64,000 nucleotides of DNA from Candidatus Marinacidobacterales bacterium (GCA_965219415.1 CBDCNP010000002.1:4128001-4192000); one strand, 5' to 3'; shown: positions 23,880-56,829, numbered from the stretch's first letter. A program made the numbers and translations. The notes: generated by a model from the letters alone, not told the origin.

Positions 23880-24004
23880 CGTCCTGTGCCAAAACTCGGC
23901 CCAGCCGGCATTGACGAAAGAACTGCGCCTCTCGAAATCAGGCTAAAACTCTAGCACGCGAACAGGTTACGCGGCGGCCGCCAACACTTGACTGCGGAAG
24001 CACC
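23880..24004. repeat. chimeric linker A + IS1/C2 end
   Basis: cgtcctgtgcc...cttgactgcggaagcacc; inverted copy at 53508-53631; preceded by a C end at 23855. Confidence 0.85.
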
Positions 24005-24402
24005 CATCGGTGCATCGGTTGCGTGACCTTCATCATTAATTGTGGTCGGCACCCTGAGCATCAGCGGGGGAACCGTCCAGCGCAGCGGGCTTCTGGTCAG
24101 GCTCCATCGTTGTCCTCCGCCGTGATTCGGCCACGGGTGCTCCGCGATAGGCGGGGCGGACACGGACTCTATGCAGTCGGACGCGAATGCCCGAACTCGT
24201 CTACTGGATGACCCGCCGCCAATAGCGCCTTCTGAATACTCCGCAGAAAATCGGGTGCTTTCAGCATTTTGCTACTAAAGTGAGGATCGGAGGGGAGCAC
24301 CAAGTCGCATACACGTCCATTTTTATCCAGTTTGTAGAATATGACAGTGGCTTGTCTATCGGGAGCCTTTCCTTCGTGAGCTGCTCCTTTTGCTTGTGGC
24401 CC

Positions 24403-24568
24403 GGTGCTTCCGCCATCAAGTGTTGGTGAGATGACGCTAAGACTTTACAGTGCATTAAGTTACAGTCAAAATAGCGCTTGTGACCTTCCGCGCGCGCTAA
24501 ATGGAGCGTAAGTGCCTCTTTTGCAAAGGGATGCGTACATATCACCAACAGTAAACAGCGGAAGCACC
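24403..24568. mobile_element. IS1-derived MITE C1
   Basis: Inverted copy of 21333-21498. Confidence 0.85.
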
Positions 24569-24880
24569 TCGCGTTCCAGAACCTAGCGCTTTACGCGCAG
24601 CGCCTCGGCAAACACCTGGTACAAGATGATCCGGGAGTGCGGGTGGAAGCGTCCCCGGAGGCACGTGCATCCGGCGAAGCCCAAGGAAGGCCTCAGAACA
24701 ACGCGCCCCAACGAGTATTGGCAAATCGACGCAACCGTGATCCGGCTGACAACCGGCATCCGAATCTACCTCCAAGCTGTCATCGACAATTTCAGCCGAA
24801 GGATTCTCGATCCTTCGACAGTACGGTGGCGGTGCGGCGTCTCGTCGCCTTCTACGTCGGTGAGTACAATGAAAAGATCC
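24569..24880 (+). pseudogene. rve transposase internal fragment
   Basis: RPNEYWQIDAT...YLQAVIDNFSRRIL. Confidence 0.65.
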
Positions 24881-25071
24881 CGCGCCCTGCGCCCCCACGA
24901 TGCGCGTCGGGAAAACGTTGCTGGTCGGCTTCGACGAAAGCTCTTACGCGGACGTTCTGGGATAGCTTCTAGGCACTTGATGTCTCGAAACTCGCGGGCT
25001 GCACGACTTCCAAGAATTCCAAATCCGGCGAGCGCATAGGGCGTCCGGCCGACCGCCTCTGCTCACCGCCC

Positions 25072-25343
25072 TTACGGATGCCGCGGGCGTGTGGTGACCT
25101 TCGCCCGCGGATACTTCGCCTTGATCTCCTTCGCGTAGGCTTCCCGCCTTCGGCGCTGAGCTTCAGGCCGATGGGCTTCGTACCAGCGGTGCGACCGCAC
25201 CATCTGAGAACAGCTCGACGAACAGTACCGCTGACGCCGCGTCTTTACGATTAGGCGTTGACACGCTGGCCGGAGACAACGGGCGAGCCGGTGGCCACTG
25301 TTCTCGAGGGTCTCGACCACCGTGAGCCAGAACGAGTCGGGCC
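25072..25343 (-). pseudogene. CGNR-like zinc finger C-terminal fragment
   Basis: RLARCLRPAC...RRQRYCSSSC; 5' end cut by a D MITE. Confidence 0.45.
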
Positions 25344-25437
25344 TGTGCCCCGCAAAAAATCGATCCGGCGTTGATTGCGCGTTTTAGACCTGCTATATTC
25401 GGCTGCTTCTGGCCGATCTTCTTTTTTGCGGATCACA
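25344..25437. mobile_element. D-type MITE (~94 bp)
   Basis: TIRs tgtgccccgcaaaaaa / ttttttgcggatcaca; second copy at 25561-25654. Confidence 0.75.
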
Positions 25438-25539
25438 GGAGTGGATTGAAACTCTGTAGGCACGAAGATACGCGGCGAGCTGTAGGGCGTCTCCCCTCGC
25501 TTCGGCGGGGGGAGTGGATTGAAACTCCGCTCAGGAGCT
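25438..25539 (+). CRISPR. CRISPR remnant: partial repeat, 36-nt spacer, full 37-nt repeat, partial spacer
   Basis: GTCTCCCCTCGCTTCGGCGGGGGGAGTGGATTGAAAC at 25489-25525; GGAGTGGATTGAAAC at 25438-25452; no cas genes. Confidence 0.75.
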
Positions 25540-25560
25540 GCGGATCACAGGCTCAACCGC

Positions 25561-25654
25561 TGTGCTCCGCAAGAAGTCGATCCGGCGTTGATTGCGCGGG
25601 TTAGACCTACCATAGTCGGCTGCTTCTGGCCGGTTTTCTTTTTTGCGGATCACG
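25561..25654. mobile_element. D-type MITE copy
   Basis: Diverged copy of 25344-25437. Confidence 0.75.
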
Positions 25655-25784
25655 GGCCTTCTTTCGCGAGCTGCGCCTTCGTTTGGTAGTACTCTTGTTT
25701 CGGCCTTACCCGGGTTCGCGCGGCGCGCGGAGCTCCGGCGCGTGTATGCCAGCCAGCCGCAGACGCTTGCCCCAGAGTTCCACG

Positions 25785-25935
25785 GTTTCACTGTCGATAA
25801 CACATGCGGTGCCAAAGTTGATTCAGGGCTTTCGTCCAACCCGTTCCACGGATGGTGCACGCTTGCCTGCTGTAAGCCAGCAATCGGCGGAAGGCTTGCC
25901 CAGGAAACTGGATCGTCGAGATCACTACAACTAAG
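25785..25935 (+). pseudogene. Nmad2-like (nucleotide modification associated domain 2) fragment
   Basis: DSGLSSNPFHGWCTLACCKPAI resembles the DxGFAPNPF.G.CTLA.CKP.I motif. Confidence 0.55.
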
Positions 25936-25989
25936 AGCAACACAAAATGGACGACGAAGAGATTAGGAGAGTGTCGGAAGGGCTGAAGC

Positions 25990-26267
25990 GGTCGTGCCGG
26001 TCGACCCGACGATGCCACCGGCGTCTTGGGAACGTGGAGAGGTTCGCTCGTGCGACTGTTTTCGAATATTCGATCTATTGTTCTGGACGCCATCGCGTTC
26101 GCTCGCAACCTATGCCGCTCGCGCAGCGCCCTCGCCGCAGAGAACCTTTTCCTTCGGAAGCAGCTTACGTTCTTCGTCGAGCGTAAGCAGCTATCGGTCG
26201 CAGGAAGGCTCGCTATAGATGGCGAGACTCAACTAAAACAGTCTCCGGGAAAACCCGGGGCGGTTCA
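25990..26267 (+). mobile_element. D-element 5' internal fragment joined to an IS3-type right end
   Basis: RSRSALAAENLFLRKQL; ends gtctccgggaaaacccggggcggttca. Confidence 0.6.
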
Positions 26268-26382
26268 CGCCATGGGAATCACTGTAACGCGAGTTACCTG
26301 CCTACCTCTTTCTGGTTCCCCGTGCGCCAGATACAATACTTAGGCGGTAGAACGTTAGAACGACCCGAAGTCTCAGCAAATC

Positions 26383-26694
26383 ATGAACCGACAGAAGATC
26401 GAATACGGCCAACCCATTGAAGTCGCCATTACACCACGGCAAAGGAGTCTCATACTGGAGCATGCGATGGTTGGGCCCGAGGTCACTGGCCTTCTACGGA
26501 TGGCGGTGGTCAAAGGTAAGAAACTCATCGTTAAGCTGACTCTGGATGATCTGGATGAGATAATTGGCTACATCGCGGCGGAAGCAAATCACACGGATGA
26601 CAAAAAGCTCCAAAAGGAATTCGACCATCTCTATGAGCGGCTAAAAACCACGATGGAGTCATATGACGACGGCATGTGGCAGGGGGCATTCTAA
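26383..26694 (+). CDS. hypothetical protein, putative integron gene cassette
   Basis: 103 aa; GTTAGAA at 26354 upstream, TTCTAAC overlapping the stop. Confidence 0.7.
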   Translation: MNRQKIEYGQPIEVAITPRQRSLILEHAMVGPEVTGLLRMAVVKGKKLIVKLTLDDLDEIIGYIAAEANHTDDKKLQKEFDHLYERLKTTMESYDDGMWQGAF

Positions 26695-26787
26695 CGCGCC
26701 ATTGAAGCTGACGGCCGGTCGCACTGCATTAGCTGTAGTCTGTGTCTTTTGCCCGGCCCCCGGCCGCAACTCCCCGGTTCGTTATTT
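26689..26787. other. degenerate attC-like site
   Basis: ttctaac..aagctgacggccgg ... ccggccgcaact..gttattt. Confidence 0.5.
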
Positions 26788-26874
26788 GGATGCTGTTCAT
26801 GCCAGTCGGAGCGCAAGAGGACGAATGAGGGGTCCGAGTCGGGAGCTCCGAGCGGCGACTGCGCGGTACATGGA

Positions 26875-27306
26875 ATGAGATGGATTAAGAAAGGTTTGAG
26901 ATTCGAGTGCCAACCAGACTGCGGTCACTGCTGCTCACAGTCAATGTTCGGCAAGGGTGACGTCGAGGGCGTCTTTTTGAGTAAGCGCGATGTGGGTCGG
27001 TTGCAGAAGGCTGGGGTTGCGTGGGCGATTGAGGAACGTGGCGACCATCGCGTTCTATCGGAGGCTTCGGGCACCTGCGTATTGCTGGATCCGAGAACGA
27101 AGGGCTGTGGGATCTACGACGTGCGGCCGACGCAGTGCCGGAACTTCCCCTTCACGCCGGGCAAAGACTCGCCAATCGCTACTCGTTCACAGTGGAACAC
27201 GGCGCGAGAGCACTGTCCTGGTATCGGTATCGGACGATACTACGACAAGCGACACATTCGAAAGTTAGTTCGGGGTCGCGCCCAGCATGGTAGCTTCCAA
27301 GTCTGA
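26875..27306 (+). CDS. YkgJ family cysteine-cluster protein
   Basis: FECQPDCGHCC, C.LLD....GCGIYDVRPTQCRNFPF, CPGIG. Confidence 0.8.
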   Translation: MRWIKKGLRFECQPDCGHCCSQSMFGKGDVEGVFLSKRDVGRLQKAGVAWAIEERGDHRVLSEASGTCVLLDPRTKGCGIYDVRPTQCRNFPFTPGKDSPIATRSQWNTAREHCPGIGIGRYYDKRHIRKLVRGRAQHGSFQV

Positions 27307-27314
27307 GGACCGTG

Positions 27315-27422
27315 GTAGGGTCGAGGGCTGGCGCGGTGCTCCGTAGGCGCGGCCTATCTGTTTCTCCCCGTTTCCTGTGGGAGTGGCTCACTAGCCACAC
27401 CGTAAGTCCGTTTCCAGCCCCC
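27315..27422 (-). mobile_element. group II intron 3' end (domain VI only)
   Basis: Minus strand ggggctggaaacgg...accgcgccagccctcgaccctac; copies at 34621 and 59887. Confidence 0.65.
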
Positions 27423-27588
27423 TGTGCTCCGCAAAAAGTCGATCCGGCGTTGATTGCGCGTTTTAGACCTGCCATGCTCGGCTGCTTCGTGCCGGTCGAC
27501 CTGACGACGCCACCGGCGTCTTAGGAACGTGGAGAGGCTCGCTCGTGTGACTGTTTTCGAATATCCGGTCTATTGTTCTGGACACGAC
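27423..27588. repeat. linker: end D plus F-like outward end
   Basis: tgtgctccgcaaaaag...ttctggacacgacg. Confidence 0.65.
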
Positions 27589-27919
27589 GAGGTTGGTCGG
27601 AATCTCGTCGACCCACTCGACGGCTTTCTGCGCGGCAAGCGATGGCTCATCCTGGACCGCGACCAGAAGTTCACCACGGAGTTTCGGAACTTGCTCGAGC
27701 ACGCCGAAACGGACGTCTTGCGGCTGCCGCACCGTTCGCCGAATCTGAACGCTTACGTCGAAAGGTTTGTTTTGTCGATCAAGAGCGAGTGCCTGGAACG
27801 GATGATCTTCTTCAGTGAGCCATCGCTGCGCCGTACCGTCGCTGAGTTCATCCATCATTATCACGGAGAGCGCAACCATCAAGGGAACGGGTTGCTCGAA
27901 GCGGAAGAATGCGGTCGGT
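27589..27919 (+). pseudogene. A-related rve transposase C-terminal fragment
   Basis: [34 protein letters not shown]. Confidence 0.75.
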
Positions 27920-29172
27920 TGTCCCTTCCATAAACTCGAGCTGTATAAGATTGGCGAACTTCCTGCAACCGGAATGCTTTGGTCGTCTTCATGTAGGACG
28001 TTTTAAGAGCCGGCGTCGGCTCTACTCAGGGGTAGAGGTGTAAGCTGGTGCGAAGTCCGGCAGCCGTTCCGAGCGGATCGGACTCAAGCAGCGCGTCGAG
28101 TGTAATAATGATGGAGACCACCGACCTTTGGAATGACTCTCACTTTGCCCATCGCCGGTGACTCTACCCGGCGAGGCTCAGGCGCGTCCTTCTCAAGCGA
28201 CAAATGAGTCCGGCACGAATGATAGTAGTCGACGTATTTGCGTAGGATTCGCTTCAGGTGCCGCTCATCAAGGACGATCACGTGGTCGAGACACTCACGT
28301 CGAATGGAGCCGATCATCCTTTCGACAAATGGATTCTGCCACGGGGAGCGCGGTGCGGTAAGGACCTGCTCCATCCCGAGACCGTCGACGCGAGTATCGA
28401 AGTACGCTCCGTAGGTCTGGTCTCGATCCCGTACCAGGTACCGAGGCGCCGTGTCCCATGGAAAAGCATCGACCATTTGCTGCGCCGTCCACTCGGCAGA
28501 AGGATGTTCGGTGACATTGAAATGAACGATACGGCGACGGTCGTGGCGAAGGACGATGAAGACGAACAGAACTCTGAAGGTTGCGGTCGGCAAAGTGAAA
28601 AAGTCGAGCGACACCAAGTCGTTTGCATGATTATCGAGAAAGCTCCGCCAAGTATGGGACGGTGGGGTGCGATGGCGAACCCTATACTTGGAGACGGCGG
28701 CCTGGGAAATGGAGATGCCTAGCTTCGCCAGCTCGCCATGCACGCGGGGAGCTCCCCAGAGAGGGTTGGCCCTGCTCATGTTCCGTATCAGCTCACATAT
28801 TTCGGGAGCGACGCCTGGTCGTCCAGGCCTACGCCGTCGGCTCTTCCAAGTCCAATATCGTCTGAACCCACAACGGTGCCAGTGGATGACCGTCTCAGGT
28901 TTCACGATGACGAGGACGCTCTCCCAGTCAGTCCAGATTCTGCGCAACAGCACCCAAAACCCGCGGTCGACATTCGAGAGCCGTGCCGTTTCACGGAACG
29001 GCGGAGGACGGCGAGCTGCTGCCGAAGAGCGACATTCTCGAGAGCCAGCTCGCGACGAGCCTTGAAGGCGGAGATGAGAGCGGGAACCAACGACGAAATC
29101 ATGCCGGCATGGTGCTGGCAGACCGGAGATTATTCAAGTTTGGTGCGCGCGGATAAATAAATAGAAGGCACA
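27920..29172 (-). mobile_element. element B: full-length rve/IS481-like IS, frameshifted
   Basis: Imperfect TIRs tgtgccttctattta / tgtcccttccataaa; ORFs 28902..29102 and 28084..28953 ([20 protein letters not shown]); no TSD. Confidence 0.85.
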
Positions 29173-29280
29173 AGACGATAGCCGCCTGTTGGTCACGGTG
29201 GCCCCAACACCAACCATGTCAAAGGCTGGATCGGCGTCCTCATGAGGACGGGCACGAAACCGGAATCTAGAGCGTTTCGG

Positions 29281-29739
29281 TCACTCGGAGCTTGCCTTCG
29301 GATAGATCTTCTCCCCGTCGTAGTCTCTCATCCCGCAGAAACCGATGACCTCGAACCCATTTTCTTTCAGCAAGGCCGCGGCACGCGCGGCTCGTCCTCC
29401 GCCGTTTCAGGCGGTGAGGATGGGTTTATCCTGTGGTAGCTCGTCGAGCCGATCGGCAAGTTGGCCGATGGGAATGTTAGTGTAGCCTTCGACCGTACCC
29501 AACTCCTCCAACTCTTCGGGGTTTCGTACATCGAGGAGAAAGACCTTCGCATCATTCAGCGCTGCCGCGAGCTCCTCGCCTTTGAGCTGTGGTGCTTCGT
29601 CGATCGCGTTGGTCGCTGATTCAGCCGGCTCAACCGGCGCCGATGAGGAAGCGGGCTCCTCTTGTCCCCCGCCGTCCCCACCACCGCAGGCGAACAGCGC
29701 CGCCGCGGCTGTCGCGGGGAGCCAATAGAGTCGTTTCAT
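29281..29739 (-). CDS. rhodanese-domain lipoprotein, probable selenoprotein (in-frame TGA at 29407-29409)
   Basis: Lipobox LFAC; LLDVRNPEE; DKPILTA-U-NGGGRAARAAALL continues in frame to the stop at 29281. Confidence 0.8.
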
Positions 29740-29870
29740 GGTCACCTCCACCGCAACCTATAGCACATCTAGGCGTTCGGCTGCCGCTGGCACCGCGGGC
29801 ACAGATACCGTGAGGAATAGACGCTTGAGATCCAGACCCGGATATTCGAAAACAGTCGCACGAGCGAGCC

Positions 29871-30065
29871 CGTCGTGTCCAAAAATACAAACGAACTCAA
29901 GCTTCGCGCACCGGGCTTTCGGTTACCACCCTTCTGAGGGTGTGCCTCCTATTTATTCATCCGCGCGCACCGAACTTGATTAGTCTCCGGTCTGCCGGCT
30001 GTGCTCCGCAAAAACTCGATCCGTCGTTGATTTTGCAGTTTAGACCTGCCAGGATTGGCCGTTTC
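29871..30065 (+). repeat. stacked ends F, B and D
   Basis: cgtcgtgtccaaaaa (29871), tgtgcctcctattta (29941), tgtgctccgcaaaaa (30000). Confidence 0.75.
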
Positions 30066-34378: not shown

Positions 34379-34518
34379 CGTCGTGTCCGAAAACCCGAAC
34401 GGAGCCCGAAAGTTCGAATCCTAGAGGCGTTCTCGAAATTCGCAGAGACCAGCCGACGCGGCCCTTGGTCTGCGATAGGCGCTCTCGAGGGTGCTTCCGC
34501 CATCAAGTGTTGCTACGC
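34379..34518 (+). repeat. end F variant followed by an IS1 (C) end
   Basis: cgtcgtgtccgaaaa; ggtgcttccgccatcaagtgttgctacgc at 34490. Confidence 0.65.
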
Positions 34519-34620
34519 CGTCCTGTGCCAAAACTCGGCCCTTTTGAAAGACCATGGCTGTAATTTAATGCACTGTAAAGTCTTAGTGTCATTTTGCCAA
34601 CACTTAATGGCGGAAGCACC
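34519..34620. repeat. chimeric linker A + C1 end
   Basis: Inverted copy at 45695-45796 with the same junction ttgaaagaccatggctg. Confidence 0.88.
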
Positions 34621-38389: not shown

Positions 38390-38567
38390 CGTCCTGTGCC
38401 AAAACTCGGCCCTTTTGAAATAGCCCATAAATCAGCAACTTAGTGTCTGTGTTTGCGGCCGTGCCAAGGGCCGAGCGCGAACAAACGACGAGATCATGCA
38501 GGCATGGTCCCGGGAGACCGGAGACCGATCAAGTTCGGGGCGCGCGGATGAATAAATAGAAGGCACA
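38390..38567. repeat. chimeric linker A + B
   Basis: Second copy at 54359-54536 with the same junction gggccg|agcgcgaac. Confidence 0.88.
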
Positions 38568-39943
38568 GCGCCTTGTTTCGGAACGCCTTCGTCACCACTC
38601 CTCTGTGTTCGCCGTCGCGGGCGAGTTTCTTGACCGGACAATACGCCCGGGCACATGGCGTCTCGACAAACGCGAGCGCGCTCAGCCCACTCGTCGCTAC
38701 GTCCCCGAGTCTTCTTGAGAATGGAGGTTACGACACGGCCTTCATCGGGAAATGGCACATGGGAAACGACGATACGCCTAGACCGGGTTTCACGCATTGG
38801 GTGAGCTTCCGTGGACAGGGCTCGTACCGGGACCCCGAACTGAACATCAATGGCGAGCACGTGCCGACGCTGGGCTATTTGACGGACGTGCTCAACCATT
38901 ACGCAGTAGACTTCGTTCGCACTGCTGCGCGAGGGTTCCGGCCGTTTCTACTCTACCTTTCCCACAAGGCAGTCCACGGGCCGCTGGATCCACCCGACCG
39001 GCACACGGACCTGTACCGTGGCGCACCGGTTCCCTGCTCGCCCGGGTGCCAGGATACGCTAAAGGGCAAGCCAGCCCTGACGCTGACCAAGCCCCCGAGT
39101 CCCGGAGACGGACTCTCTGATGAAGCTATCCGCAAAAAATTGAGACTTCTGAAGTCGGTCGACGAGGGTGTGGGACGGATTCTCAGGACGCTGGCGCAGG
39201 AAGGAGTCCTAGACCAAACAGCCGTCATTCTCACGAGCGACAACGGGTTCTTCTTGCGGGAGCACGGTCTGCGTGACAAGCGCTGGGCATACGAGGAAGC
39301 GATCCGCATTCCACTCCTCGTGCGTTACCCTCCGCTCACACGTCCAGGGGCGAGAATCGACCAGATCGTCCTGAACGTGGACTTGGCCCCTACGCTGCTT
39401 GAACTTGGGGGTGTGCCCGTTCCTGCCGAGGTGCACGGTCGTTCGTTTTTGCCGCTCCTGAAAGGAAAGAAGGAAGGGTGGAGGGACATGTTCGCGGCCG
39501 AGTATTTCAGAGAGAGCCGTTTCCCACGCACCCCTACATGGGAAGCGCTCCGAACGGAGCGCTGGAAATACATTCGATACCCTGAGTTGGGTATGGAATA
39601 CGATGAACTCTACAATCTACGGAGCGATCCCTACGAACTCCGGAACGTGGTGAACGATATGAGATTGACAGACCTGCTGGAAAGACTTCGGAAAAGGCTG
39701 ACTCGGCTTCTAACATTTCCTCCGCGTGCTGCCTTCGACGATTCAGCCCTCAGCAGCAGCTCACCGGTGCTTCTGCTATCAAGTGTTGCACTGACGGCTT
39801 CGACTACTCTACTCGCTGAAAGTTCTGGCCATGGCCAAGACCGCTGTGAGGCCGTCTCCGGTTGTACTCTCGTGTCTCGAGTTGGTCGTGAGGTCAAAAT
39901 ATTCATGCGGCTTCCCGATGGTAGAAACGTAGCAACCCCGTGA
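38568..39943 (+). pseudogene. sulfatase, N-terminally truncated at end B
   Basis: LCSPSRASFLTG, GKWH, TSDNG, ELYNL.SDP.E; no N-terminal NI..DD motif; tail after ~39720 looks unrelated. Confidence 0.8.
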
Positions 39944-40026: not shown

Positions 40027-41226
40027 GGTGCTTCCGCCATCAAGTGTTGCTACGCGGCCGCGGGCAGTGGTACAGGTGCGGAAGAGAGCGGGTTGCGCGC
40101 CCCAGTGAGCACGAAAACCTCGATCCGCGACCACAAAGGAATCGTCGTCACCAAGAAGATGTCTCGAAAGGTGAGCCGTCGCGTGGTCAGACCGGCCTGC
40201 ATAGCCGGAGTTCGGATCTCACGTCCGAACTTCAGAGCTCCGTGCGGTCGGACGAAGTTGTAATAGCAACGGAGCAACTCCAGGTGCTCATTGAGCCTCT
40301 CCGTCGAGCGAGCGTGAGAAAGTATTCGTCTCGAAAGGTATGCCGAGCTTTGCCGGATGGTCAGATTCAACCGCTCGATGAACGACGTGTTCAATGTCGA
40401 GGAGTCCTCGGAGTTATTGAGCGCGTCTTCAAATCGCCACGCGGCTCCGTGCAGCGCTCTCCGTTCGACCTTGATGATGCGATCGTTCCTGCGCGTTTTT
40501 AGGACCTGGCCGTAGAGACACGCTGGACCGAAGAAGCGACGGATGACTTTCTGGTAGAATTCGAATCCATCCGTGACGATCAGGGGAAGACGTCCGAAAT
40601 TCATCCGTCTCGAAAGGTCGCAAAACAGAGCGTGAGTGTTCCGGTAGCTTCGCCTTCCCGTCACCGTCGATGGCCAGAGCCGAGACCAGACTTCGATTGT
40701 AACGAAGACCCAACTCGGTGTCTTCTTGTTGCCCGCGAACGTGCGAATCTCGTCGGCTTGAAGCTCTTCGGCAGCGAAGCCAGCGATCCTTCTGTGATTG
40801 AATCGACGACACACTTGGGCTGCCTTCTCGAGCCAGCGGGCGACGGTGTTCCAGGCAATCCCTTTGATCCGGGAAATCGAGGAAATGCTGACACCCTCGA
40901 CTCTGAGAGCGATGACCCCATCGAAAGTAGCTCTTCGATGTTGGAGACGGTAGTAGGGCTTGCCTTTCGTCGAAGAGAACGTCTTTCCGCACTCGCCGCA
41001 CCGGTATCGACGGCGTTTCCCGGACCTCGTTCTGTAGAATCCGTTGTGAATAATACTTCTGGAACCGACTTTTCCATACGACGGACATGCGGGATTGAGA
41101 CATCTGCGATTCTTCACTTCGGCTCGGCCCTGACGATGAGAGAACTGTGTCTTCAGAATTCTGGTTCAAACTCTAGCACGCGAACGGGTTACGCGGCAGC
41201 CACCAACACTTCATGGCGGAAGCACC
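40027..41226 (-). mobile_element. IS1-family element, complete single ORF (40050..41117)
   Basis: TIRs ggtgcttccgccat; zinc ribbon, HTH, DE..TF.G.KK, TDG, IERLNLTIR; no TSD. Confidence 0.88.
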
Positions 41227-41460: not shown

Positions 41461-41579
41461 TGTGCCTTCTATTTATTCATCCGCCAGCCCCATGGGTCGG
41501 AAGTCAGCCCTGCGGCGCGAAATACCCTGGATTCTGCGCGGATTCCAAGGGCGTCTAAGCTGCTGATTTGTGGTCTATT
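41461..41579. repeat. A-B' linker, A side truncated by a MITE
   Basis: Matches 56683 onward. Confidence 0.8.
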
Positions 41580-41820
41580 GGTGCTTCCGCAATCAAGTGT
41601 TGCTACGCCGTGTTTGAATGCTAGTGTCAGCTGGCCTGCCTGTGTCGGCGAACGCCATTAATGATGTCGGCGCGCACACGAAGGTGTCCCTGAACGTCAG
41701 GCACCGTGTGGTCAGCCCAACCCGCATCGCCGAAAGAACTGCGTCTCTCGAAATCAGGCTTAAACTCTAGCACACGAGCGGGTTACGCGGCAGCCACCAA
41801 CACTTAATTGCGGAAACACC
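41580..41820. mobile_element. IS1-derived MITE C2 (~240 bp)
   Basis: Shares both ends with the IS1 at 40027; copies at 43973-45664 and 49878-50121. Confidence 0.85.
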
Positions 41821-42773
41821 AGCGCGGCAGTGTCGGGGACCGCCTTCAGCAAGGCCTGCATCAGCATGACGTCCACCATCGAGGTCTCGTCAACGACCAG
41901 CAGGCCGCAATCGAGAGGGTTGTTGCCGTTGCGCTTGAACCCACCGCCCTTGGGATCGACTTCGAGTAGCCGGTGGATCGTTTTCGCCTCGAACCCGGTG
42001 GCCTCGGTCATCCGCTTGGCGGCGCGGCCGGTTGGGGCGCAGAGCAGCAGGGTCACGCCCTTGGCGGCCAGGATGCGCAGGATGGCGTTGACGATGGTCG
42101 TTTTGCCCACGCCCGGCCCGCCGGTGATGACCAATGCCTTGGAGGTCAGGGCTAGGCGAACCGCCTCGGCCTGGCTTGCCGCCAGCGACAGACCGGTCTT
42201 CCCCTCGACCCAGGGTAGCGCCTCGCCGGCATCGATATCCGGCCAAGGAAGCTTGCCGCCCGTAATCCGGAGAACCCTCTCGGCGATCACCCGTTCGGCA
42301 CGGTAGAGGCCGCCAAGGAATATACAGGGAGTTCCGGCAACCGCCGCAGCGACGACGGTGCCTTCTGCCAGTTCGAGGTCCAGCGCGTCTTGAACCAACT
42401 CCTTTGACACTTCCAGCAATTCGACGGCGAGCGGTGAAAGCTTTTCGGCAGGAAGGCCGCAATGACCGTCATCCATCGCCTCGGTGAGCGCATGGGAAAT
42501 CCCCGCGCGAACCCGGATCATGGCTGTTTTCTCGATGCCGAGCTTCATGGCGATCGTGTCGGCGGTCTTGAACCCGATGCCGCGAATATCTCGTGCAAGG
42601 CGGTACGGGTTCTCGGTCATGACCTGAACGGCATCCACGCCGTAGGTCTTGTAGATCCACACCGCGCGCGCCGTGCCGATGCCATGGCTGTGCAGGAACA
42701 CCATGATCTCGCGAACGATCTTCTGTTCCGCCCAGGCGTCGGTGATGCGTTTGGCACGCACACGGCCGATGCC
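41821..42773 (-). pseudogene. recD2: RecD2-like helicase internal fragment
   Basis: NPYRLA.DI.GIGF, ITGGPGVGKT, APTGRAAKR, VVDETSM; both ends cut at linkers. Confidence 0.88.
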
Positions 42774-42921
42774 CGTCCTGTGCCAAAGCTCGGCCCTTTT
42801 GAAATAGACCACAAATCAGCAGCTTAGACGCCCTTGGAATCCGCGCAGAATCCAGGGTATTTCGCGCCGCAGGGCTGACTTCCGACCCATTGGGCTGGCG
42901 GATGAATAAATAGAAGGCACA
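42774..42921. repeat. chimeric linker A + B'
   Basis: Inverted full copy at 56683-56829. Confidence 0.88.
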
Positions 42922-43917: not shown

Positions 43918-43992
43918 CGGGTCACACTCGCTCCATTATCGTCACCACGCCCTGACCACCACCGATGCAGAGGGTGCTTCCGCCATCAAGTG

Positions 43993-45435
43993 ATGGAATG
44001 GACTCCTCCACTGACATAGACGGCATCGATGTGCCAAAGTCAGTCGAATACGCATCGAAAAGGAGGAGTCCAAATGAAAGATACGACAATCGCTGTGGAT
44101 CTTGCAAAGAACGTCTTCGAGATTGCCATCTCGGGAGAAGCGGGGAAGGTGTCCAAGCAACTCCGTGTGAGTCGACCCAAATTGGTGTCGTTCTTTGCCA
44201 AACAGAGCGCTGCCACCGTGCTTCTCGAAGCCTGCGGCTCGGCTCACTTCTGGGCAAGGACGTTCCGAAGGTTGGGACACGACGTCGTCCTGCTCCCACC
44301 TCACCTCGTGAGGCCGTATCGACGCGGGAGCAAGAACGACCGCGCCGACACGAAGGCGTTGCTCGAGGCCTACAGGAACGAGGAGCTTCTTCCCGTACCC
44401 ATCAAGTCCGTGCACCAGCACACCCTCGCTGCGCTCCATCGCCTGCGCTCAGGATGGCTCTCCACACGGACCGCACGCATCAATGCCGTACGCGGGCTCC
44501 TGCGCGAACTCGGATTCATCATCCCAAAGGGCGCTCACTTCGTCGTGCCCGCCCTCTTCGAACTCGTCGAAGACGCTGATTCTGATTTGCCCGACGTGCT
44601 CCGTTCGCATCTCCGTGATGCCTGCTCCGAGATTCGAGAACTCAAGGACAAGTGCGCTAGCATCGAGCACGAGCTCAAGGCGCTCACCAAGCAGCTTCCT
44701 GAAGTCCAACGACTTCTCGCCATTCCCGGCATCGGACTTCTGGCCGCGACCGCCATCGTGGGCTTCGTCGGCGATCTTCGCCGCTTCCCATCGGGGCGCC
44801 GCTTCTCGAGCTACCTCGGCCTAGTTCCCAAGGAAAACTCCAGTGGCGACATTCGCCGCCTCGGACGCATCACCAAGCGTGGCGACTCCTACCTCCGTAT
44901 GCTCCTCACCCAGGGCGGGCGCGCCGTGCTCCGCGCGGCGAACGTCAGCAAGAGCCCGCCCGACAAGCTCCGCGCCTGGGCTCGGAAGGTCCACCGCTCG
45001 CGGGGACACAACAAGGCCGTGATTGCTGTCGCCAACAAACTCGCCCGGATCGTCTGGGCCGTCTCCACCCGCGAGAGTGAATTCCAGTCGCCGGTGGCCG
45101 CTTAGATTTAGAGGCTCCACTTTCGTGTTTTCCTTTTTCCCTTCCAAAAGAGGCTGCGACGATACCCATCCAACTGATGGCGTACCGGTCGGACCGGCGC
45201 GGGGTCAAGCCAATAGCAACACTGGCCCTAAGAGGTCGTTCAAAGTGATTGGCTCCTCGCGCGCGGATTTTCCATCATGGCCCGGAGCACCCAAGACGCT
45301 CCTCACTGAGGCCGAAGATACGTTTGCAGTCTGACCCACTCGTCACGACGCGATGGATGCGCAGCTTCGATGGAAGATTTATTAAGAAAGGGGCGTGACT
45401 AGAAAGAAAGGGGCTTGACTAGAGGAGTCCAGATA
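43993..45435 (+). mobile_element. IS110-family IS1111-group element inserted in a MITE C2 TIR
   Basis: Tnp 44074..45105 (AVDLAK, LEAC, KNDRAD, SSG...GRITKRGD); subterminal IRs tggactcctc / gaggagtcca; TG core on both sides. Confidence 0.9.
45140..45335 (+). ncRNA. putative seekRNA/bridge RNA of the IS1111 element
   Basis: Downstream non-coding region carries a target match (tagcaacact) and a donor-junction match (ttccatcat); boundaries approximate. Confidence 0.7.
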
Positions 45436-45664
45436 TGTTGCTACGCCATGTTTGAATGCTAGTGTCAGCTGGCCTGCCTGTGTCGGCGAATGCCATTAAT
45501 TAAGGATGTCGGCGTGCACACCAAGGTGTCTCTGAACGTCAGGCACCGTGTGGTCAGCCCAGCCCGCATCGTCGAAAGAACTGCGTCTCTCGAAATCGGG
45601 CCCCCAAACTCTAGCACACGAGCAGGTTACGCGGCAGCCACCAACACTTAGTGGCGGAAGCACC
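45436..45664. mobile_element. remainder of MITE C2 (begins at 43973)
   Basis: tgttgctacgcc...gcggaagcacc. Confidence 0.85.
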
Positions 45665-45694: not shown

Positions 45695-45796
45695 GGTGCT
45701 TCCGCCATTAAGTGTTGGTAAAATGACGCTAAGACTTTACGGTGCATTAAATTACAGCCATGGTCTTTCAAAAGGGCCGAGTTTTGGCACAGGACG
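45695..45796. repeat. chimeric linker C1 + A
   Basis: Inverted copy of 34519-34620. Confidence 0.88.
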
Positions 45797-49877: not shown

Positions 49878-50121
49878 GGTGCTTCCGCCATCAAGTGTTG
49901 CTACGCCGTGTTTGAATGCTAGTGTCAGCTGGCCTGCCTGTGTCGGCGAACGCCATTGATAAGGATGTCGGCGTGCACACGAAGGCGTCCCTGAACGTCA
50001 GGCACCGTATGGTCAGCCCAGCCCGCATCGCCGAAAGAACTGCGTCTCTCGAAATCAGGCTCAAACTCTAGCACACGAGCGGGTTACGCGGCAGCCACCA
50101 ACACTTAATTGCGGAAGCACC
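49878..50121. mobile_element. IS1-derived MITE C2
   Basis: Copy of 41580-41820. Confidence 0.85.
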
Positions 50122-50214
50122 CAGTGGTCTGGGAAAGCCCCGGGCCGCTGCTCCACCCCTACCCGGGGGCGTCCACTGGGACAACCCCGGAAGGGGACGA
50201 ATACAATGCTTCCG

Positions 50215-50874
50215 CTACTTCGGTTGGGGAACGATCCGGATGTAGGGTAGCGGCGACTGCCAACCGGCAGGATACTTCTTCTTGGCCTCGTCGTCGGACA
50301 CGGCTGGAACAATGATCACGTCGTTGCCCTGTTTCCAATTGACCGGTGTTGCCACCTTGTGGGTCGCTGTGAGTTGGCAGGAGTCTAGGAGGCGGAGGAT
50401 CTCATCGAAGTTGCGGCCCGTGCTCATCGGGTAAGTCAAGGTCGCCTTGATCTTCTTATCGGGGCCGATGATAAACACGGACCGGGCCGTCGCGTTGTCC
50501 GCCGCCGTCCTTCCGGTGGAGGTGTCGCCCTCGTCCGCCGGCAGCATGTCGTAGAGCTTGACGACCTTCAGTTCTGGATCCCCGATCAGCGGATAGTTGA
50601 TCGCGTGTCCCTGGGATGCCTCGATTTCCTTCGACCACCTCTTGTGGTCGCTGACTCCATCGACGCTGATGCCGAGAACCTTGCAGTTGCGCTTTTCGAA
50701 CTCAGGCTTGAGCCCCGCCATATAGCCGAGTTCCGTCGTGCAGACCGGCGTGAAGTCCTTTGGATGCGAGAACAAGATGGCCCAACCTTCGCCAATCCAA
50801 TCATGAAAGTTGACCGTCCCTTCTGTCGTTTCTGCGTTAAAGTTCGGCGCTTCGTCATTGATTCTGAGCGTCAT
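50215..50874 (-). CDS. 1-Cys peroxiredoxin (Prx6 type)
   Basis: FSHPKDFTPVCTTELG, YPMSTGRNFDEILR, ATPVNW. Confidence 0.93.
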   Translation of the reverse strand: MTLRINDEAPNFNAETTEGTVNFHDWIGEGWAILFSHPKDFTPVCTTELGYMAGLKPEFEKRNCKVLGISVDGVSDHKRWSKEIEASQGHAINYPLIGDPELKVVKLYDMLPADEGDTSTGRTAADNATARSVFIIGPDKKIKATLTYPMSTGRNFDEILRLLDSCQLTATHKVATPVNWKQGNDVIIVPAVSDDEAKKKYPAGWQSPLPYIRIVPQPK

Positions 50875-51170
50875 AATTCCCTCCAGAGCATGTGAACGAC
50901 CCGTTAACCGGTTTGAATGTGAAAAATCTAAGGCGATGACCGTTGTTGAAATACTCGATTCAACTCGGCTCCCAAGACAGCCTCCTCCTGAAGACTCGAC
51001 AGACCTGGGTAGCCCGGAACTGCCAAGAGAGAGTTCGTCCCCAAGGTGCTTAGTCTCAGATCCCAAACGCTATGAAGTACGGTTGCACGCTTAAATGCTA
51101 CTCAGTTTCAACGGGTCGGACAAGTGCAATCGCGCGTCGGGTGCAGAAGGAGCACACTTTCTTAATTATT

Positions 51171-52247
51171 GGGATGTGTCCCGAGGTCCGTGGAAAAAGA
51201 ACGGCACCCTCCACTCCGTCATCAGAGTATCATATCAGGCGGCAACCTCCGCGTGTTCGAGAACCTCGCTCAGACGTTGGTAGCCGTCGATGCGTCGTCG
51301 TCCTGTGCCAAAACTCGGCCCTTTTGAAATAGGCCATAAATCAGCAGCTTAGTGTCTGTGTTTGCGACCGGGCCAAGGGCCGTGGGCTTTACAATCGTCT
51401 GGCCCGAGGGTGCTATCTTCAGATCCAGTACCATCCATTGACCACCAGCAGGGCCACCGGCAACCACCGCCGCACGCCGCTAGCGACCGCACTTCCTGGA
51501 TTAGCTGCCGGAAGAGAGAGCAAGCCGGTTTCCCGCATCGCCGAGCCATTCATCCAGTTTCGACCACCGCCGCCGTCCCGAGACATTGCGCACGGCGATG
51601 GCCACAGCCTTCTTCTGGCCGACCAACCCATTCGACGGCTTTCTGCGCGGCAAGCGATTCCTCATCCTGGAACCGCGACAAGAAGTTCACCACGGAGTTT
51701 CGCGATTTGCTCGAGCACGCCGGAACGGACGTCATTCGGCTGCCGCACCGTTCGCCGAATCTGAACGCTTATGTCGAAAGGTTTGTTTTGTCGATCAAGA
51801 GCGAGTGCTTGGATGCATCATGAACGGGCCACCCGGCCCCGGAGTGATTCCGGCAATGTGCACTTTTCGCGAAGACAGCTCGATGACGACGAGCACATAG
51901 TAGGTCACGAGCCTGCGAACTGTGGCGACCTCGACGGTGAAGAAGTCGGTCGCAGCAACGGTTTCCCAATGGGCGGCGAGAAACGTGCGCCATGGCGTTC
52001 GCTCACTTCGCTCCGGCGCGGGCTCGATGCCATGTTCTCGCAGAACATTGGCGATGGTGCTCCTGGCTACCGTATGGCCGAGATTCGAGAGGGCGCCGCG
52101 AATGCGTGTATACCCCCACCTCGGATTCGACTTCGCCATCCCTACGACAAGCTTGCTAATCTCGGCCATGACCCGGGGCCGTCCGGGCTGTTTCCGCCGC
52201 TCGCTGTAGTCCCACTTCCGCGCAATCAGCCTTCGGTGCCAAGCCAG
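51171..52247. mobile_element. IS256 end, end A (51299) and scrambled A-related transposase fragments on both strands
   Basis: [12 protein letters not shown] (+); [17 protein letters not shown] (-). Confidence 0.75.
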
Positions 52248-53505
52248 TGAAGTGACCCCGCTTTCGTGGACAGGTTAAGAGTTAGGGATCAAGCGTCGCG
52301 ATAGTACCTCCTTTCGAATTGGATAGGCGAGCAATAGTCGATGGCGGAGTGTCGTCGTCGCGGGTTGTACCAGCCTTCGATGAAATCGAAGGTCGCCATG
52401 CGCGCCTCAGCGTGGTAGCGAAACGACCGGCGCTCGATCAGCTCGCACTCGAGCGTCGCGAAGAAGCTCTCGCACATCGCATTGTCGTAACAGTCCCCGA
52501 CCGAACCCATCGACGGTCGCACCCCGGCCTCCCGGCATCGCTGGCCGAACGCTAGTGACGTGTACTGCGTGCCCTGGTCCGAGTGATGGATGACGTCGCC
52601 GGGCTTGCGTTGGAACAGCGCCATGTCGAGGGCGCTCAAGACGAGCGACGTCCGCAGGTGGGTAGCCATTGCCCATCCGACGATGCGTCGGCTGAAGGCG
52701 TCCAGCACGACGGCGAGGAACAAGAAGCCCGACCACGTGGGCACGTAGGTGATATCGGCGACCCACAGGCGGTCGGGCCGGTCCACCTCGAAATTCCTGT
52801 CGACGAGATCGGGGGCGGGACGGGCGTCGTCACAGCGAATCGTAGTGTGCGCCCTCTTGCGCCGGTGAACACCTTGAATGCCAGCCTCGCGCATCAGCCG
52901 CGCTACACGCTTGCGTGAGACGTGGAGCTCGTGTGTCTCTCGTAGCTCGTGGAGAATCCTCGGCGCGCCGTACGTGCTCCGCGACGCGGTGTGAATCGCC
53001 CGGATCTTCTCAAGCAACTCCGCATCCGACACCGCGCGGGCCGACGGGGCACGCTCAAGCCACGCATAGTAGCCGCTGGCGGAGACGTCCAGCAGTCGGC
53101 ACATCGTGGCAACCGGTAGTGAATCCTGGTTCGCCCTCACGAATCGGAAGGCTTCGGTGGTACCGACTCGGTCTCCCGAGCGAACCAGGCCGCGGCTTTT
53201 GAGAGGATCTCCCGCTCCAACCGTAGTTGACGGTTCTCCCGTCGCAGGCGGCGGAGCTCCGCACGCTCCTCACTCGTCAGACCGTCCTGCCTGCGACCCT
53301 CGTCGAGATCCGCCTGGTTCACCCAGTTCCGGATCGTCTGGCCCGAGGGCTCAAACTCTCGCGCCAGCTCTTCAGAGCCGCGGCCAGCTCGCACCAGCTC
53401 TACCATTTGGCGCCGGAACTCGGCCGCGTATCTGTTTCCCTGCTTTGACATCGTGGACTCCTGTCTCCCAAAGGATTAGGTGTCCACGAAAGCGGGTCAA
53501 GTCCA
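52248..53505 (-). mobile_element. IS3-family element, complete
   Basis: TG..CA TIRs; orfA 53137..53451, orfB 52289..53140 (WVADITY, HSDQG, DNAMCESFF); no TSD. Confidence 0.9.
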
Positions 53506-53507
53506 GC

Positions 53508-53631
53508 GGTGCTTCCGCAGTCAAGTGTTGGTGGCCGTTGCGTAACCTGTTCGCGTGCTAGAGTTTTGCCTGATTTCGAGAGGCACAGTTCTTTCGTCGA
53601 TGCCAGCTGGGCCGAGTTTTAGCGCAGGACG
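53508..53631. repeat. chimeric linker C2 end + A
   Basis: Inverted copy of 23880-24004. Confidence 0.85.
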
Positions 53632-53723
53632 AGATGCGGCGGCGGGTCCGTCGTTCACACCATCGATTCTCGAGCCCTAGGTCAGCGAACACGTGGCCGC
53701 TGCACCATGCGATCTGCATCGCT

Positions 53724-54020
53724 TCACACCGACGGATGCGGCTGGTATCGCTCGACGTTGATCCGATCTTCGTCCTTGCGCGCTTGGACGAGATCCCAAG
53801 TGGTCTGTCGGCGCAGCCAGAACTCGGCATTGGACCAGCCCGCCTTCTCAAGCCGAATGGCCATCTCCGGGGAGATGGCCGCGTGGCCGTTCAGAACCCG
53901 CGAGAGGGTGTGACGGGCGACACCCAGCACCTTCGCCGCTTCGGTCACGTTCAAACCGAGCGGGTCCAGGCAGTTCTTGCGGATGCTGCGTCCGGGATGC
54001 GGGGGATTGCTCATCGCCAT
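53724..54020 (-). CDS. higA: HigA family antitoxin
   Basis: [30 protein letters not shown]. Confidence 0.9.
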
Positions 54021-54034
54021 GTTGCTGCCTCCTG

Positions 54035-54313
54035 CTAGTGGTAGTCGATCAGGTCGACATCGTAGGCATCGCCATCTTCGAAGCGGAAGATCACCCGCCA
54101 GTTGCCGGAAATCGAGATGCTCCAGTACCCCTTCAGTCCGCCCTTCAGCGGGTGAAGCCGGTAGCCGGGCAGGTCGAGGTCCGAGGGCTTGCGGGCATCG
54201 TCAAGGTCCGTCAAGGCGAGCGCGACGCGGTCCGCGAGGTCGGGACCCACTCGGCTCGGATCGCCACGCTCGTACATGCGCTTCAGACCACGATGACGAA
54301 ACCTTCGGATCAT
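54035..54313 (-). CDS. higB: HigB/RelE-type toxin (plasmid maintenance killer)
   Basis: [33 protein letters not shown]. Confidence 0.9.
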
Positions 54314-54358
54314 GAGGGAGTGTACCGCATACCGGTACACATTTCAATTGGGGAATCC

Positions 54359-54536
54359 CGTCCTGTGCCAAAACTCGGCCCTTTTGAAATAGCCCATAAA
54401 TCAGCAACTTAGAGTCTGTGTTTGCGGCCGTGCCCAGGGCCGAGCGCGAACAAACGACGAAATCATGCAGGCATAGTCCCGGCAGATCGGAGACCGATCA
54501 GGTTCGGGGCGCGCGGATGAATAAATAGAAGGCACA
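54359..54536. repeat. chimeric linker A + B
   Basis: Copy of 38390-38567. Confidence 0.88.
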
Positions 54537-55678
54537 GGCCAGCGCTATTCGCGCTTGCCGGCAGAGGAGTGAGGAGCTCGTTGCCGAGACCTTGGTGGTT
54601 CCGTTCTGTGTGATAGTGCACTACGTATTCGGTTACCGCTGTGCGCAGGTGTCGCTCACTGAGAGGTACGAAGCGGTCGAGACACTCTCGACGTATGGAG
54701 AGAACGAATCTTTCCGCGTATGCGTTCAGATTCGGACTGTTCGCTGGAAGGCGGAGGGGCTTCACACCTGAATCTCTCAAGAGCCCACGTACCGCCTCGG
54801 TGAATAGCGGGTTCCCGGTCGTGGATGAGGTACCGCTTGCCAAGGAGGAAACCATCCCACAGGTCAGTGAGGTTTCTTGCCGCCTGCTTCATCCACTCCC
54901 CGTTTGGGTCCGAGGTCATCCCACCGATGCATACGCAGCGAGTGGCGATATCGATGACAAACAGGACATGGTAGCGGACGAGCCCGAACGGGTTCACCAC
55001 CTCGACGGTGAACAGGTCTGTCGCAGCGATGGCGCCCCAATGAGCCTTGAGGAAAGTGCTCCACGACATGCTCTTGCCCCGCTCCGGAGCCGGCGCGATA
55101 CCGTGCTCGGCGAGGAGCCTCTTGAATGGTGTTGCGTCCGAGTTCATGTCCGAGGTTCTTGAGTGCACCCCGCAGGCGCGTATATCCCCACGTCGGGTTC
55201 TCCTGCGCCACGCGCACAATGAGCTCACGGATGTCCTTCGCCGTCGGAGGTCGGCCTGGGCTCCGGTTCTTGCTGCCATCGTACTTGGCTGCGATGAGGC
55301 AGCGGTACCAGCGCAGGAGCGTAGCGGGTGTGGCAACCGACGCAATCTGGGCCAGCGCCTCGCGGCCTAAAGCTTGGGCCTTGACCGCGAGCCTGCGCCG
55401 GTCGTCGTCCGAGAGACTGAGACGCTTGCCCCGAAGCTCGGCTCGGAGCACACGGTTCTCCTCTTGCAGGTAGTCGATCACATCCTGCTGCTGGCGGTTG
55501 ACCCAGCCAGCCAGAACGAGCAGCAGGAATTGCACGTGGTAGGTCATCATGGGTCTGAAGATAACACCCTCGGGCCAGACGATTGTAAAGCCCACGGCCC
55601 TTGGCCCGGTCGCAAACACAGACACTAAGCTGCTGATTTATGGCCTATTTCAAAAGGGCTGAGTTTTGGCACAGGACG
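54537..55678 (-). mobile_element. element A second copy, 3'-truncated and frameshifted
   Basis: Near-identical to 450-1590; end A at 55678. Confidence 0.88.
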
Positions 55679-55848
55679 CGGGACCGACTAGGCGCTAGTA
55701 GCCGACTTCACGGCCGTGGTGACGTTGCGTTTACTTCGTCCTCGTCCGATAGAATGCTCTGCCAAATTGTTCACCGACCAGCTGGTCTCGGAACCAGTTT
55801 TCGGGGGGAGGTCCGCCGGATTTTCCTAAAGATTAAAGGTCGAGCGAT

Positions 55849-56400
55849 CTACGACGTAGTCTTCGCCGCCGGCGCGTGCTGCGCCATGCGCTCCTGCATC
55901 TGTCGGGTGAGATGCGGCACCAGACCGATCATGCGCTGAAGCAGCATGAGTTGACCGCGGTGGTGCATCTCGTGCTCCTTTGGTGACAGGAGCATCTCGA
56001 AACGCGTCTTGGTCGCAGGCTCCGCGCCGGGGGGCATCGCGACGGGTTCCGCAAGAAACTCATCCGACAGGCCCTCGAGGAACGACGCGAAAGCCTCTCC
56101 CTGTGATTTGAGGTAGGTGATCGTTTCTGCTTTGGTCCGCGGCTTGGCCTCTTCCGCGCTGAACTTCTGGAACAGCTCCATGAAGTTCACGTCCTTGAGG
56201 TCGGTGACCTTGTTGCGCTGGATATAGTCCTGAAACCCGGTGCTCACCGCGATGTGGGCCAGGGTGGCACCGATGCTGCGCGTGTCGGGACTCGCCTGGA
56301 ATCCGTACTTGTCCCCAGGAATGTCCTCGGCGGTCTGAATGGTGTTGCCGCGAACCTGGCGAAAGCTTCGTGCCAGGTCCTTGCCTCCGTAGTGCGTCAT
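55849..56400 (-). CDS. DinB family protein
   Basis: RSIG.TLAHI, EHEMHHRGQL....R.IG.VP. Confidence 0.88.
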   Translation of the reverse strand: MTHYGGKDLARSFRQVRGNTIQTAEDIPGDKYGFQASPDTRSIGATLAHIAVSTGFQDYIQRNKVTDLKDVNFMELFQKFSAEEAKPRTKAETITYLKSQGEAFASFLEGLSDEFLAEPVAMPPGAEPATKTRFEMLLSPKEHEMHHRGQLMLLQRMIGLVPHLTRQMQERMAQHAPAAKTTS

Positions 56401-56682
56401 TGCGATGTTTCCTCCGATTTCGATATCAGGATCTACTCAAGCTGGCTCGACAGCAGTCGCTGTCGGGTCAGCTCGATGTGCTGCTCCTCGTCGTGGCTGG
56501 CGACAATCACCAGCTCGGGCTCGGTGCGTGACAGCTCGTTCAACCGGGATTTCCATTTTGGCCGTCCTGGTCGGTACCGTTATACACCAAGCGACCTTCC
56601 GCGTGGGCCGGGTGTGTTCGTGGCCGTTTGGTCAAAATACTCGAACGCCAGCGGGTCAGCAGTTTGCATCTTTCCAAAGGCC

Positions 56683-56829
56683 TGTGCCTTCTATTTATTC
56701 ATCCGCCAGCCCATGGGTCGGAAGTCAGCCCTGCGGCGCGAAATACCCTAGATTCTGCGCGGATTCCAAGGGCGTCTAAGCTGCTGATTTGTGGTCTATT
56801 TCTAAAGGGCCGAGTTTTGGCACAGGACG
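56683..56829. repeat. chimeric linker B' + A
   Basis: Inverted copy of 42774-42921; followed by an IS3 scrap (PEHIRSDNGPEF) and a partial F end. Confidence 0.88.

Follow-up and report, generated by a model that had tools for sequence, protein, structure and literature searches.

Short hybrid elements joining ends of different insertion sequences recur as dispersed families in a Candidatus Marinacidobacterales genome

We analysed a stretch of 64,000 nucleotides from Candidatus Marinacidobacterales bacterium (GCA_965219415.1, CBDCNP010000002.1:4128001-4192000; hereafter the window), which corresponds to C3:4128001-4192000 of a genome with three contigs, a size of 8.05 Mb and a G+C content of 59%, and in which short linkers join the end of one insertion sequence (IS) to the end of another. 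Segments with at least three matches in the genome cover 33,281 of the 64,000 window bases, and a scan of the whole window with Rfam gave no family at gathering score. A preliminary description, made from the sequence alone, recognised four types of linker, each present as a pair, and we refer to these by the ends that they join as A+B, A+B', A+C1 and A+C2. All four pairs lie where that description placed them, similarity within each pair ceases within a few bases of the ends it gave, and the flanks are unrelated. This pattern goes far beyond what chance would give.

The two A+B copies (38390-38567 and 54359-54536, both on the plus strand) are in direct orientation and share 96% identity; the first is 178 bp long, with the A tip CGTCC on its left and the B tip ...GGCACA on its right, and a copy identical to it at 100% lies between different flanks at C3:3018242. 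The A+B' copies, at 42774-42921 (plus strand) and 56683-56829 (minus strand, B tip at 56683 and A tip at 56829), are inverted relative to each other and 97% identical, and copy 1 is situated between a truncated RecD2-like gene and a truncated amidohydrolase-like gene. The A+C1 pair (34519-34620, plus strand, and 45695-45796, minus strand) is likewise inverted and 97% identical; both members are short forms, the first ending exactly at an IS1-type tip. The A+C2 pair is inverted and 93% identical, copy 1 (23880-24004, plus strand) being followed by shared sequence at 24005-24402, and copy 2 (53508-53631, minus strand) having its C tip 2 nt from an IS3-family element. In the copies at 23880 and 34519 a 25-nt IS1-type left inverted repeat stands directly against the A tip (at 23855-23879 in the former, and as a remnant at about 34490-34516 in the latter). 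Two broken copies of A+B' were also confirmed, one on the plus strand that retains only the A side (19982 to about 20064), and one on the minus strand that retains the B side (41461-41579) and is cut by an IS1-type MITE (miniature inverted-repeat transposable element) at 41580-41820.

BLAST searches of the genome, with tabulation of the flanks, showed that each linker is a multi-copy family with one internal junction, and the linkers are chimeras of ends from different insertion sequences, as had been proposed. There are 37 full-length copies of A+B (90-100% identical to the window copy), 69 of A+B' (95-100%), 21 of A+C1 (95-100%) and 40 of A+C2 (88-100%). Units are 102-178 bp in length, a 91-bp form of A+B being shorter, and none contains an open reading frame (ORF) of the Pfam scan, which took in 40 selected ORFs of 150 aa or more. 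When the genome was scanned for the tip motifs, 525 A ends, 243 B ends and 489 C ends were found, nearly all on contigs C3 and C2. The A+B end pair is favoured: short inward-facing tip pairs comprise 121 A..B pairs as against seven A..A and a single B-left..B-right, together with 71 A..C and 48 C..C pairs. The A..B pairs have modal sizes of 146-147, 176-178 and 91 bp, and there are three independent A/B junction types (177, 146 and 91 bp), all with the same two tips. The claim that flanks are unrelated holds on both sides for A+B and A+B', the exceptions being three A+B pairs in which one flank or both are common, and six mutually 100% identical A+B' copies occupy six different flank contexts. 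The hybrid families multiplied into many loci after they had formed, both here and in other genomes.

The boundaries of the units can be placed precisely. The two C's that precede CGTCC vary in 12-18% of copies, compared with 1-2% for the tip, and in three related genomes (G022, G003 and G014) the RecD2-like gene is uninterrupted and reads ...GATGCC followed by GGTCACC..., where the window has ...GATGCC followed by CGTCCTG. Because these C's are variable, and because ...GATGCC is supplied by the uninterrupted allele, we take the element to start at CGTCC and the two preceding C's to be flank; ...CC is therefore a preferred flank beside the A tip. For the four positions lying immediately outside the tip's base C, a sequence logo gives A in 66%, C or T in 86%, C in 88% and C in 78% of cases, and the second position outside B tips is G or C in 97%. 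Tips are less variable than interiors both in A+B (0.020 and 0.009 versus 0.041-0.058) and in A+C2 (0.011 and 0.019 versus 0.044), figures that are biased because copies were selected by alignments required to reach both ends. When folded as single-stranded DNA, A+B' forms no hairpin and does no better than shuffled sequences (z = +0.79).

End A is the ~100-bp inverted repeat of an rve-type element, IS-A, which is 1426 bp long and has 10 full copies in the genome, several of them with an intact 356-aa transposase. The window holds a truncated IS-A at 54537-55678 on the minus strand, with its A tip at 55678, and the full 1426 bp is found elsewhere, for example at locus L007. In this genome the five outermost bases of A read CGTCC; in distant relatives (L047-L089) they read CGTAG or CGTAT, two relatives beginning instead at TGTGCC or TGTGCG. 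There is a resemblance to the REP-element tags CGTC and GTAG named in the title of one paper (PMC3733652), which may be coincidence. In contigs of four public runs, one of them labelled sponge metagenome, the A end (56753-56833) has a summed depth that exceeds the depth of the single-copy flanks ~100- to 10,000-fold, so A-type ends are exceedingly common in those data sets.

IS-B, an element of 1253 bp with five full copies in the genome, supplies end B as its left end. The copy in the window (27920-29172, minus strand) has the left end TGTGCCTTCTATTTATTC and the right end TGTCCCTTCCATAAACTCGAGC, which is unlike B, and encodes an intact 348-aa rve_3 transposase. The preliminary description had treated A and B as two families, a distinction that we do not retain. 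The transposases of IS-A and IS-B are 30% identical over 291 aa (E = 1e-34) and both carry rve_3 and helix-turn-helix (HTH_32) domains, and the A tip (CGTCCTGTGCCAAAACTCGG), aligned in the same register, agrees with the right end of IS-B at 13 of 20 positions, versus seven of 20 for the left end B (counted by eye). Since the transposases are homologous and the A tip aligns with the IS-B right end, A and B belong to one family, and on these alignments A+B would rebuild the left-end/right-end pair of that family rather than constitute a joint of two families. A third member of the lineage, IS-F (1285 bp, with tips TGTGCA and TGTCCA), has 50 full copies at 96-100% identity, for example at C3 4709363-4710647 outside the window; intact reading frames are present, and its transposase shares 49-50% identity with the IS-B enzyme. 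No intact member of the lineage is more abundant, yet IS-F gives no short (<450 bp) F-left..F-right pair.

The parent of end C is IS-C (40027-41226, minus strand), an IS1-like element of 1200 bp whose 355-aa ORF matches the IS1 model at E = 4.3e-23 over profile positions 5-168 of 199, with a score of 82.3 bits against a cut-off of 100. The two C halves come from IS1-type MITEs that are also present in the window: C1 in A+C1 corresponds to the final 65 nt of a 166-bp type (24403-24568, plus strand), and C2 in A+C2 to the final, right-hand 100 nt of a 244-bp type (49878-50121, plus strand), joined to A through a shared CTCGGCCC. A+C thus joins an rve-type end to an IS1-type end, as described previously, and it is the only combination that crosses families. 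B-type and IS1-type tips repeatedly sit within A termini, and they do so at recurrent positions: the B tip is found after A position 24 in nine places, and IS1-type tips follow ...GAAATAGACC in three independent elements and lie inside the A tip at four further sites.

We put at about an even chance the interpretation that the linkers are hybrid-ended, MITE-like and non-autonomous, having been produced by nested insertion and deletion and subsequently mobilised in trans. One IS or MITE would have inserted into the end region of another, and a deletion inside the composite would then have removed all but the two outer tips. The A+B and A+B' units and the 91-bp A+B form would then have been mobilised, each as a unit, by one transposase from a single IS481-like family (IS-B, IS-A or IS-F), whose left-end/right-end pair their tips would rebuild; this family would insert without target duplication and with a preference for ...CC next to the A-type tip. 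A+C1 would chiefly be an internal scar carried in an element with A at both ends, and in the short forms of A+C1 and A+C2 the DNA past the IS1-type tip may have been swapped through rearrangement next to the tip, or by an IS1-type transposase acting replicatively or at one end. Replicative or one-ended events, which had been raised previously, are a live option, above all for A+C.

An alternative explanation for the linkers is that they are relics or junction pieces that are not mobile as units, having arisen once within a larger composite, been multiplied by hitchhiking in larger A..A or C..C units or by segmental duplication, and then been trimmed, with the tips acting as hot breakpoints at which neighbouring DNA is swapped, either by the transposase proper to each tip or by recombination among the hundreds of copies. 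The region would thus have been remodelled by insertion targeted to tips, by deletion and by recombination. Swapping at the tips would account for both the unrelated flanks and the absence of target duplications, and we regard this explanation as possible although somewhat unlikely. It is favoured by the A+C families, in which copies do lie inside larger repeats: 14 of the 21 A+C1 copies form the left third of a ~320-bp element that ends in a second, inverted A tip, and 17 of the 40 A+C2 copies continue past the C tip into one shared sequence for between 30 and more than 520 bp. A+C1 is thus mostly an IS1-type scar inside an ordinary A..A miniature element, the other seven copies, both window ones included, stopping exactly at the C tip. 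The three A+B pairs with common flanks point the same way. Apart from those pairs, neither A+B nor A+B' lies within a larger repeat, and no larger carrier unit for either was found in the genome. This argues against relics, as do the 37 A+B and 69 A+B' copies, whose limits fall exactly at two fixed tips and whose flanks are, on both sides, almost without exception unique, the six identical A+B' copies in six contexts, and the retention of the same two tips by three independent A/B junction types. Among the full-length ISs of this genome, none has A and B together as its native ends; three A..B intervals, 1.3-1.6 kb long, were checked as candidate parents and rejected, being nested composites in which hybrids are interrupted by other ISs.

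The remaining 23 of the 40 A+C2 copies stop within a few bases of the C tip without a shared continuation and have mostly different flanks, which counts in favour of the adaptor model of the preliminary description. In that model the two sides of a linker are cut and joined by different transposases, an rve-type enzyme at A and an IS1-type or second rve-type enzyme opposite, both being required. A+C2 has an rve-type and an IS1-type tip, both less variable than its interior (with the selection bias noted above), and intact copies of both types of transposase are present in the genome. The parents of A+B, however, belong to one family, so that two enzymes are not needed for it, and A+C1 is found mostly inside an A..A element. 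We know of no case in which two unrelated DDE transposases form one working complex on a single element, and we consider the adaptor model improbable.

We compared the flanks of the linkers and of their relatives for target duplications. None of 167 full hybrid copies is flanked by a direct repeat of 2-9 or 5-44 bp with boundary shifts of up to 4-6 nt allowed, and a duplication hidden by a misplaced boundary or an odd length is thereby ruled out for 2-44 bp. Nor, with boundary shifts allowed, is there a duplication in any of 10 IS-A copies or 80 C..C elements, in the listed flanks of IS-B, or in IS-F (44 full copies examined; none among the 12 with flanks listed). Age does not explain this, because none of the six identical A+B' copies has a duplication either. 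Twelve relatives of IS-A from other phyla, with transposases 52-66% identical and inverted repeats such as CGTAGTGTGCCAAAACTCG, all have flanking repeats no better than a positional null. By contrast, an IS3-family element used as a control (52248-53505 in the window, 1258 bp, with 35 full copies on all three contigs at 99.4-99.9% identity and one of them at 97.6%) is flanked in 26 of 35 copies by a duplication of 3-4 bp; no IS in the genome is younger, and it is apparently the one active at present. The IS3-family element often lands inside A-type ends. The reported lack of target duplications is therefore true of the linkers, but it does not mark them as chimeras, since the full-length parents and their distant relatives lack duplications as well; duplication-free insertion is a trait of the parent lineage and is not special to hybrids.

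Empty sites were sought by joining 60-nt flanks of copies with a flank repeated elsewhere and looking in the genome for a paralogous site at which the flanks are contiguous. The IS3 control gave such a paralogue for 21 of 26 copies. None was found for the linkers (A+B, 0/34; A+B', 0/66; A+C1, 0/20; A+C2, 0/38), for A..A elements (0/20), for C..C ISs (0/30) or MITEs (0/40), or for IS-F (0/41); 10 apparent matches (three for A+B', four for A+C2 and three for C..C MITEs) were one-sided alignments and were set aside as spurious. Two other approaches were discarded: a joint in a public run that skips 56650-56880 was too weak to be taken as an empty allele (21 letters on the shorter side, depth 6), and ORFs spanning joined flanks do not discriminate, given a background of 78 of 150 random gaps. 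Contigs from the public runs are short and break at the repeats. At A+B' copy 1 the linker joins the interiors of the RecD2-like and amidohydrolase-like genes, and the intervening DNA is gone. The amidohydrolase-like gene has a longer copy at C3:3048742 with 100% identity, and the next 485 nt of RecD2 have no match in this genome.

We also examined 30 related genomes, and found A+B', A+B and A+C2 with exact boundaries and 88-99% identity in eight of them (G001, G002, G003, G014, G016, G018, G022 and G026), which represent two families of the order; G001 and G002 are of the same genus as the source genome, G000. Near-identical IS-A and IS-B are present in all eight carriers, although the matches listed include no more than a partial IS-A for G001 and fragments of IS-B for G014, a hint that does not decide the matter. 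Single-copy segments between elements are 98-99% identical across carrier genomes, from which it follows that the whole region has been exchanged horizontally; an 828-bp segment containing DinB (55854-56682), for instance, is 98-99% identical in G003, G014, G018 and G026. Flank breakpoints at 55854-56682 and 54356 are common to genomes of different families, and the adjoining element differs. A 20-kb comparison with five relatives for filled and empty alleles was swamped by IS-A copies. At orthologous junctions the neighbours change. In G003, A+B' copy 2 has the same B-side flank and a different one on the A side; the flank end ...CAAAGGC recurs in G018 and G014, where it abuts a different, transposase-bearing element; and in G022 the gene to the left of A+B copy 2 ends at the same base (...AATCC) and abuts a 166-bp IS1-type MITE instead.

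These comparisons bear on whether the hybrids and their odd flanks could be wrong joins made at repeats in a metagenome-assembled genome (MAG). The genome is scored as 8.45% contaminated and the relatives' records are titled MAG, both of which would favour an artefact. The same units, junctions and boundaries recur, however, in eight other assemblies, the IS3-family control has clean duplications and empty sites in the same assembly, and units of 100-180 bp would by our reckoning be shorter than the reads of any current platform. We therefore regard an assembly artefact as very improbable.

Several of the foregoing results weigh against hybrid units that were moved in trans, and three of them (the missing empty sites, the A+B' copy 1 junction and the changed neighbours in other genomes) favour relics directly. 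No transposition event was directly observed. There is no true empty site among ~250 A-, B-, C- and F-type copies, and, set against the IS3 control, the copies lack the look of simple insertions as units. The A+B' copy 1 junction, with its two truncated genes, fits a rearrangement and not a clean insertion, and each of the three junctions compared across genomes has a changed partner on one side. No single known transposase can act on both an A tip and an IS1-type tip, and the 23 A+C2 copies that end exactly at the C tip are unexplained by hitchhiking alone. The selection of copies tempers the tip-conservation figures, and the presence pattern does not name the mobilising transposase, because IS-A and IS-B co-occur in all eight carriers. 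A further reading, which we consider rather unlikely, is that the IS-A/IS-B/IS-F lineage has a non-canonical route of insertion, marked by the absence of duplications, the preference for ...CC, and copies situated at junctions instead of in contiguous DNA. Joining at the tips would possibly be targeted and conservative, or replicative and intramolecular, and the hybrids would be its cross-mobilised products, with even an IS1-type tip usable as the second end.

Genes beside the repeats are truncated (38573-39943, 41760-42812 and others), among them a sulfatase without its first ~37 profile positions and the RecD2-like helicase, which is cut after its AAA_19 domain, and the region looks like a decaying, horizontally shared island. 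Whether the linkers moved in trans as hybrid units or came about otherwise, much of the truncation of genes, and of the rearrangement, in this IS-laden region is due to them. The window also contains an IS110-family RNA-guided transposase gene (44029-45105; NCBIfam score 302 bits versus a cut-off of 140) inside an IS1-type element at 43973-45664. The IS110 insertion enters the IS1-type inverted repeat at a fixed point, between ...CATCAAGTG and ATGGAATGG..., and because the same junction recurs at other loci this suggests that the IS110 element targets the repeat.

Comparison with known elements places the parents close to, but not squarely within, established families. IS481 elements are defined by TGT ends and a target duplication of 4-15 bp. 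IS-A, IS-B and IS-F resemble them in having a single-ORF rve-type DDE transposase with an N-terminal HTH and a length of 1.25-1.43 kb, and IS-B (TGTGCC/TGTCCC) and IS-F (TGTGCA/TGTCCA) share the TGT tips. They differ in that no copy examined of any of the three has a target duplication and in that IS-B scores 83.3 bits with the NCBIfam IS481 model against a cut-off of 224; with the IS3 profile it scores 83.9 bits against a cut-off of 160, and IS-A is likewise below the curated cut-offs for both IS3 and IS481. The IS-A tip reads CGTCC and then TGTGCC, and this CGT tip and the ~100-bp inverted repeats are unlike IS481. End C is like IS1 in its GGTG... inverted repeats and in an ORF that matches the IS1 model, and unlike it in scoring 82 bits, below the cut-off of 100, and in the lack of duplications in all 80 C..C elements; IS1 typically duplicates 8-9 bp of target. 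Intramolecular replicative transposition of IS1 yields tip-precise junctions with exchanged flanks, and the tip-precise end-C junctions with exchanged flanks resemble products of this kind.

If one transposase serves both ends of the hybrids, there is cross-mobilisation between transposases that are only 30% identical; if not, an unusual joining route operates in a widespread rve-type IS lineage. In either case the most successful miniatures in this uncultured group of Acidobacteria have unlike ends and no duplication, and elements with these properties would be missed by repeat finders built on inverted repeats plus duplications.

A chimeric element has been described before, derived from ISPsy17 in Pseudomonas syringae pv. 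phaseolicola and linked to large adjacent deletions (cited in PMC3189936). It is reported to be like the linkers in being assembled from parts of different ISs, and its adjacent deletions compare with the truncated genes at A+B' copy 1; it differs in being a single plasmid-borne element, where here there are families of 20-70 miniature copies common to several genera. Textbook MITEs have two matching ends and a target duplication. The hybrids are like MITEs in being short (91-178 bp), non-coding and multi-copy, with unrelated flanks, ends from resident ISs and autonomous relatives in the genome. They are unlike MITEs in that their ends come from two ISs and are not mutual inverted repeats (the A and B tips match at seven of 20 positions, and A and C are unlike), in the absence of a target duplication even in the youngest copies, and in lacking a hairpin fold. 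Terminal inverted repeats plus flanking direct repeats are given as the basic architecture of prokaryotic MITEs in a 2024 review (PMC10969869), a search of whose text gave no match to "chimeric" and a sole match to "hybrid", in the word "hybridization" of a reference title. Our literature searches returned no title or abstract describing bacterial MITEs with ends from two ISs, which speaks only for those searches. We conclude that the hybrids are an unusual variant of known mobile DNA and not a new system, being MITE-like in size, copy number and origin.

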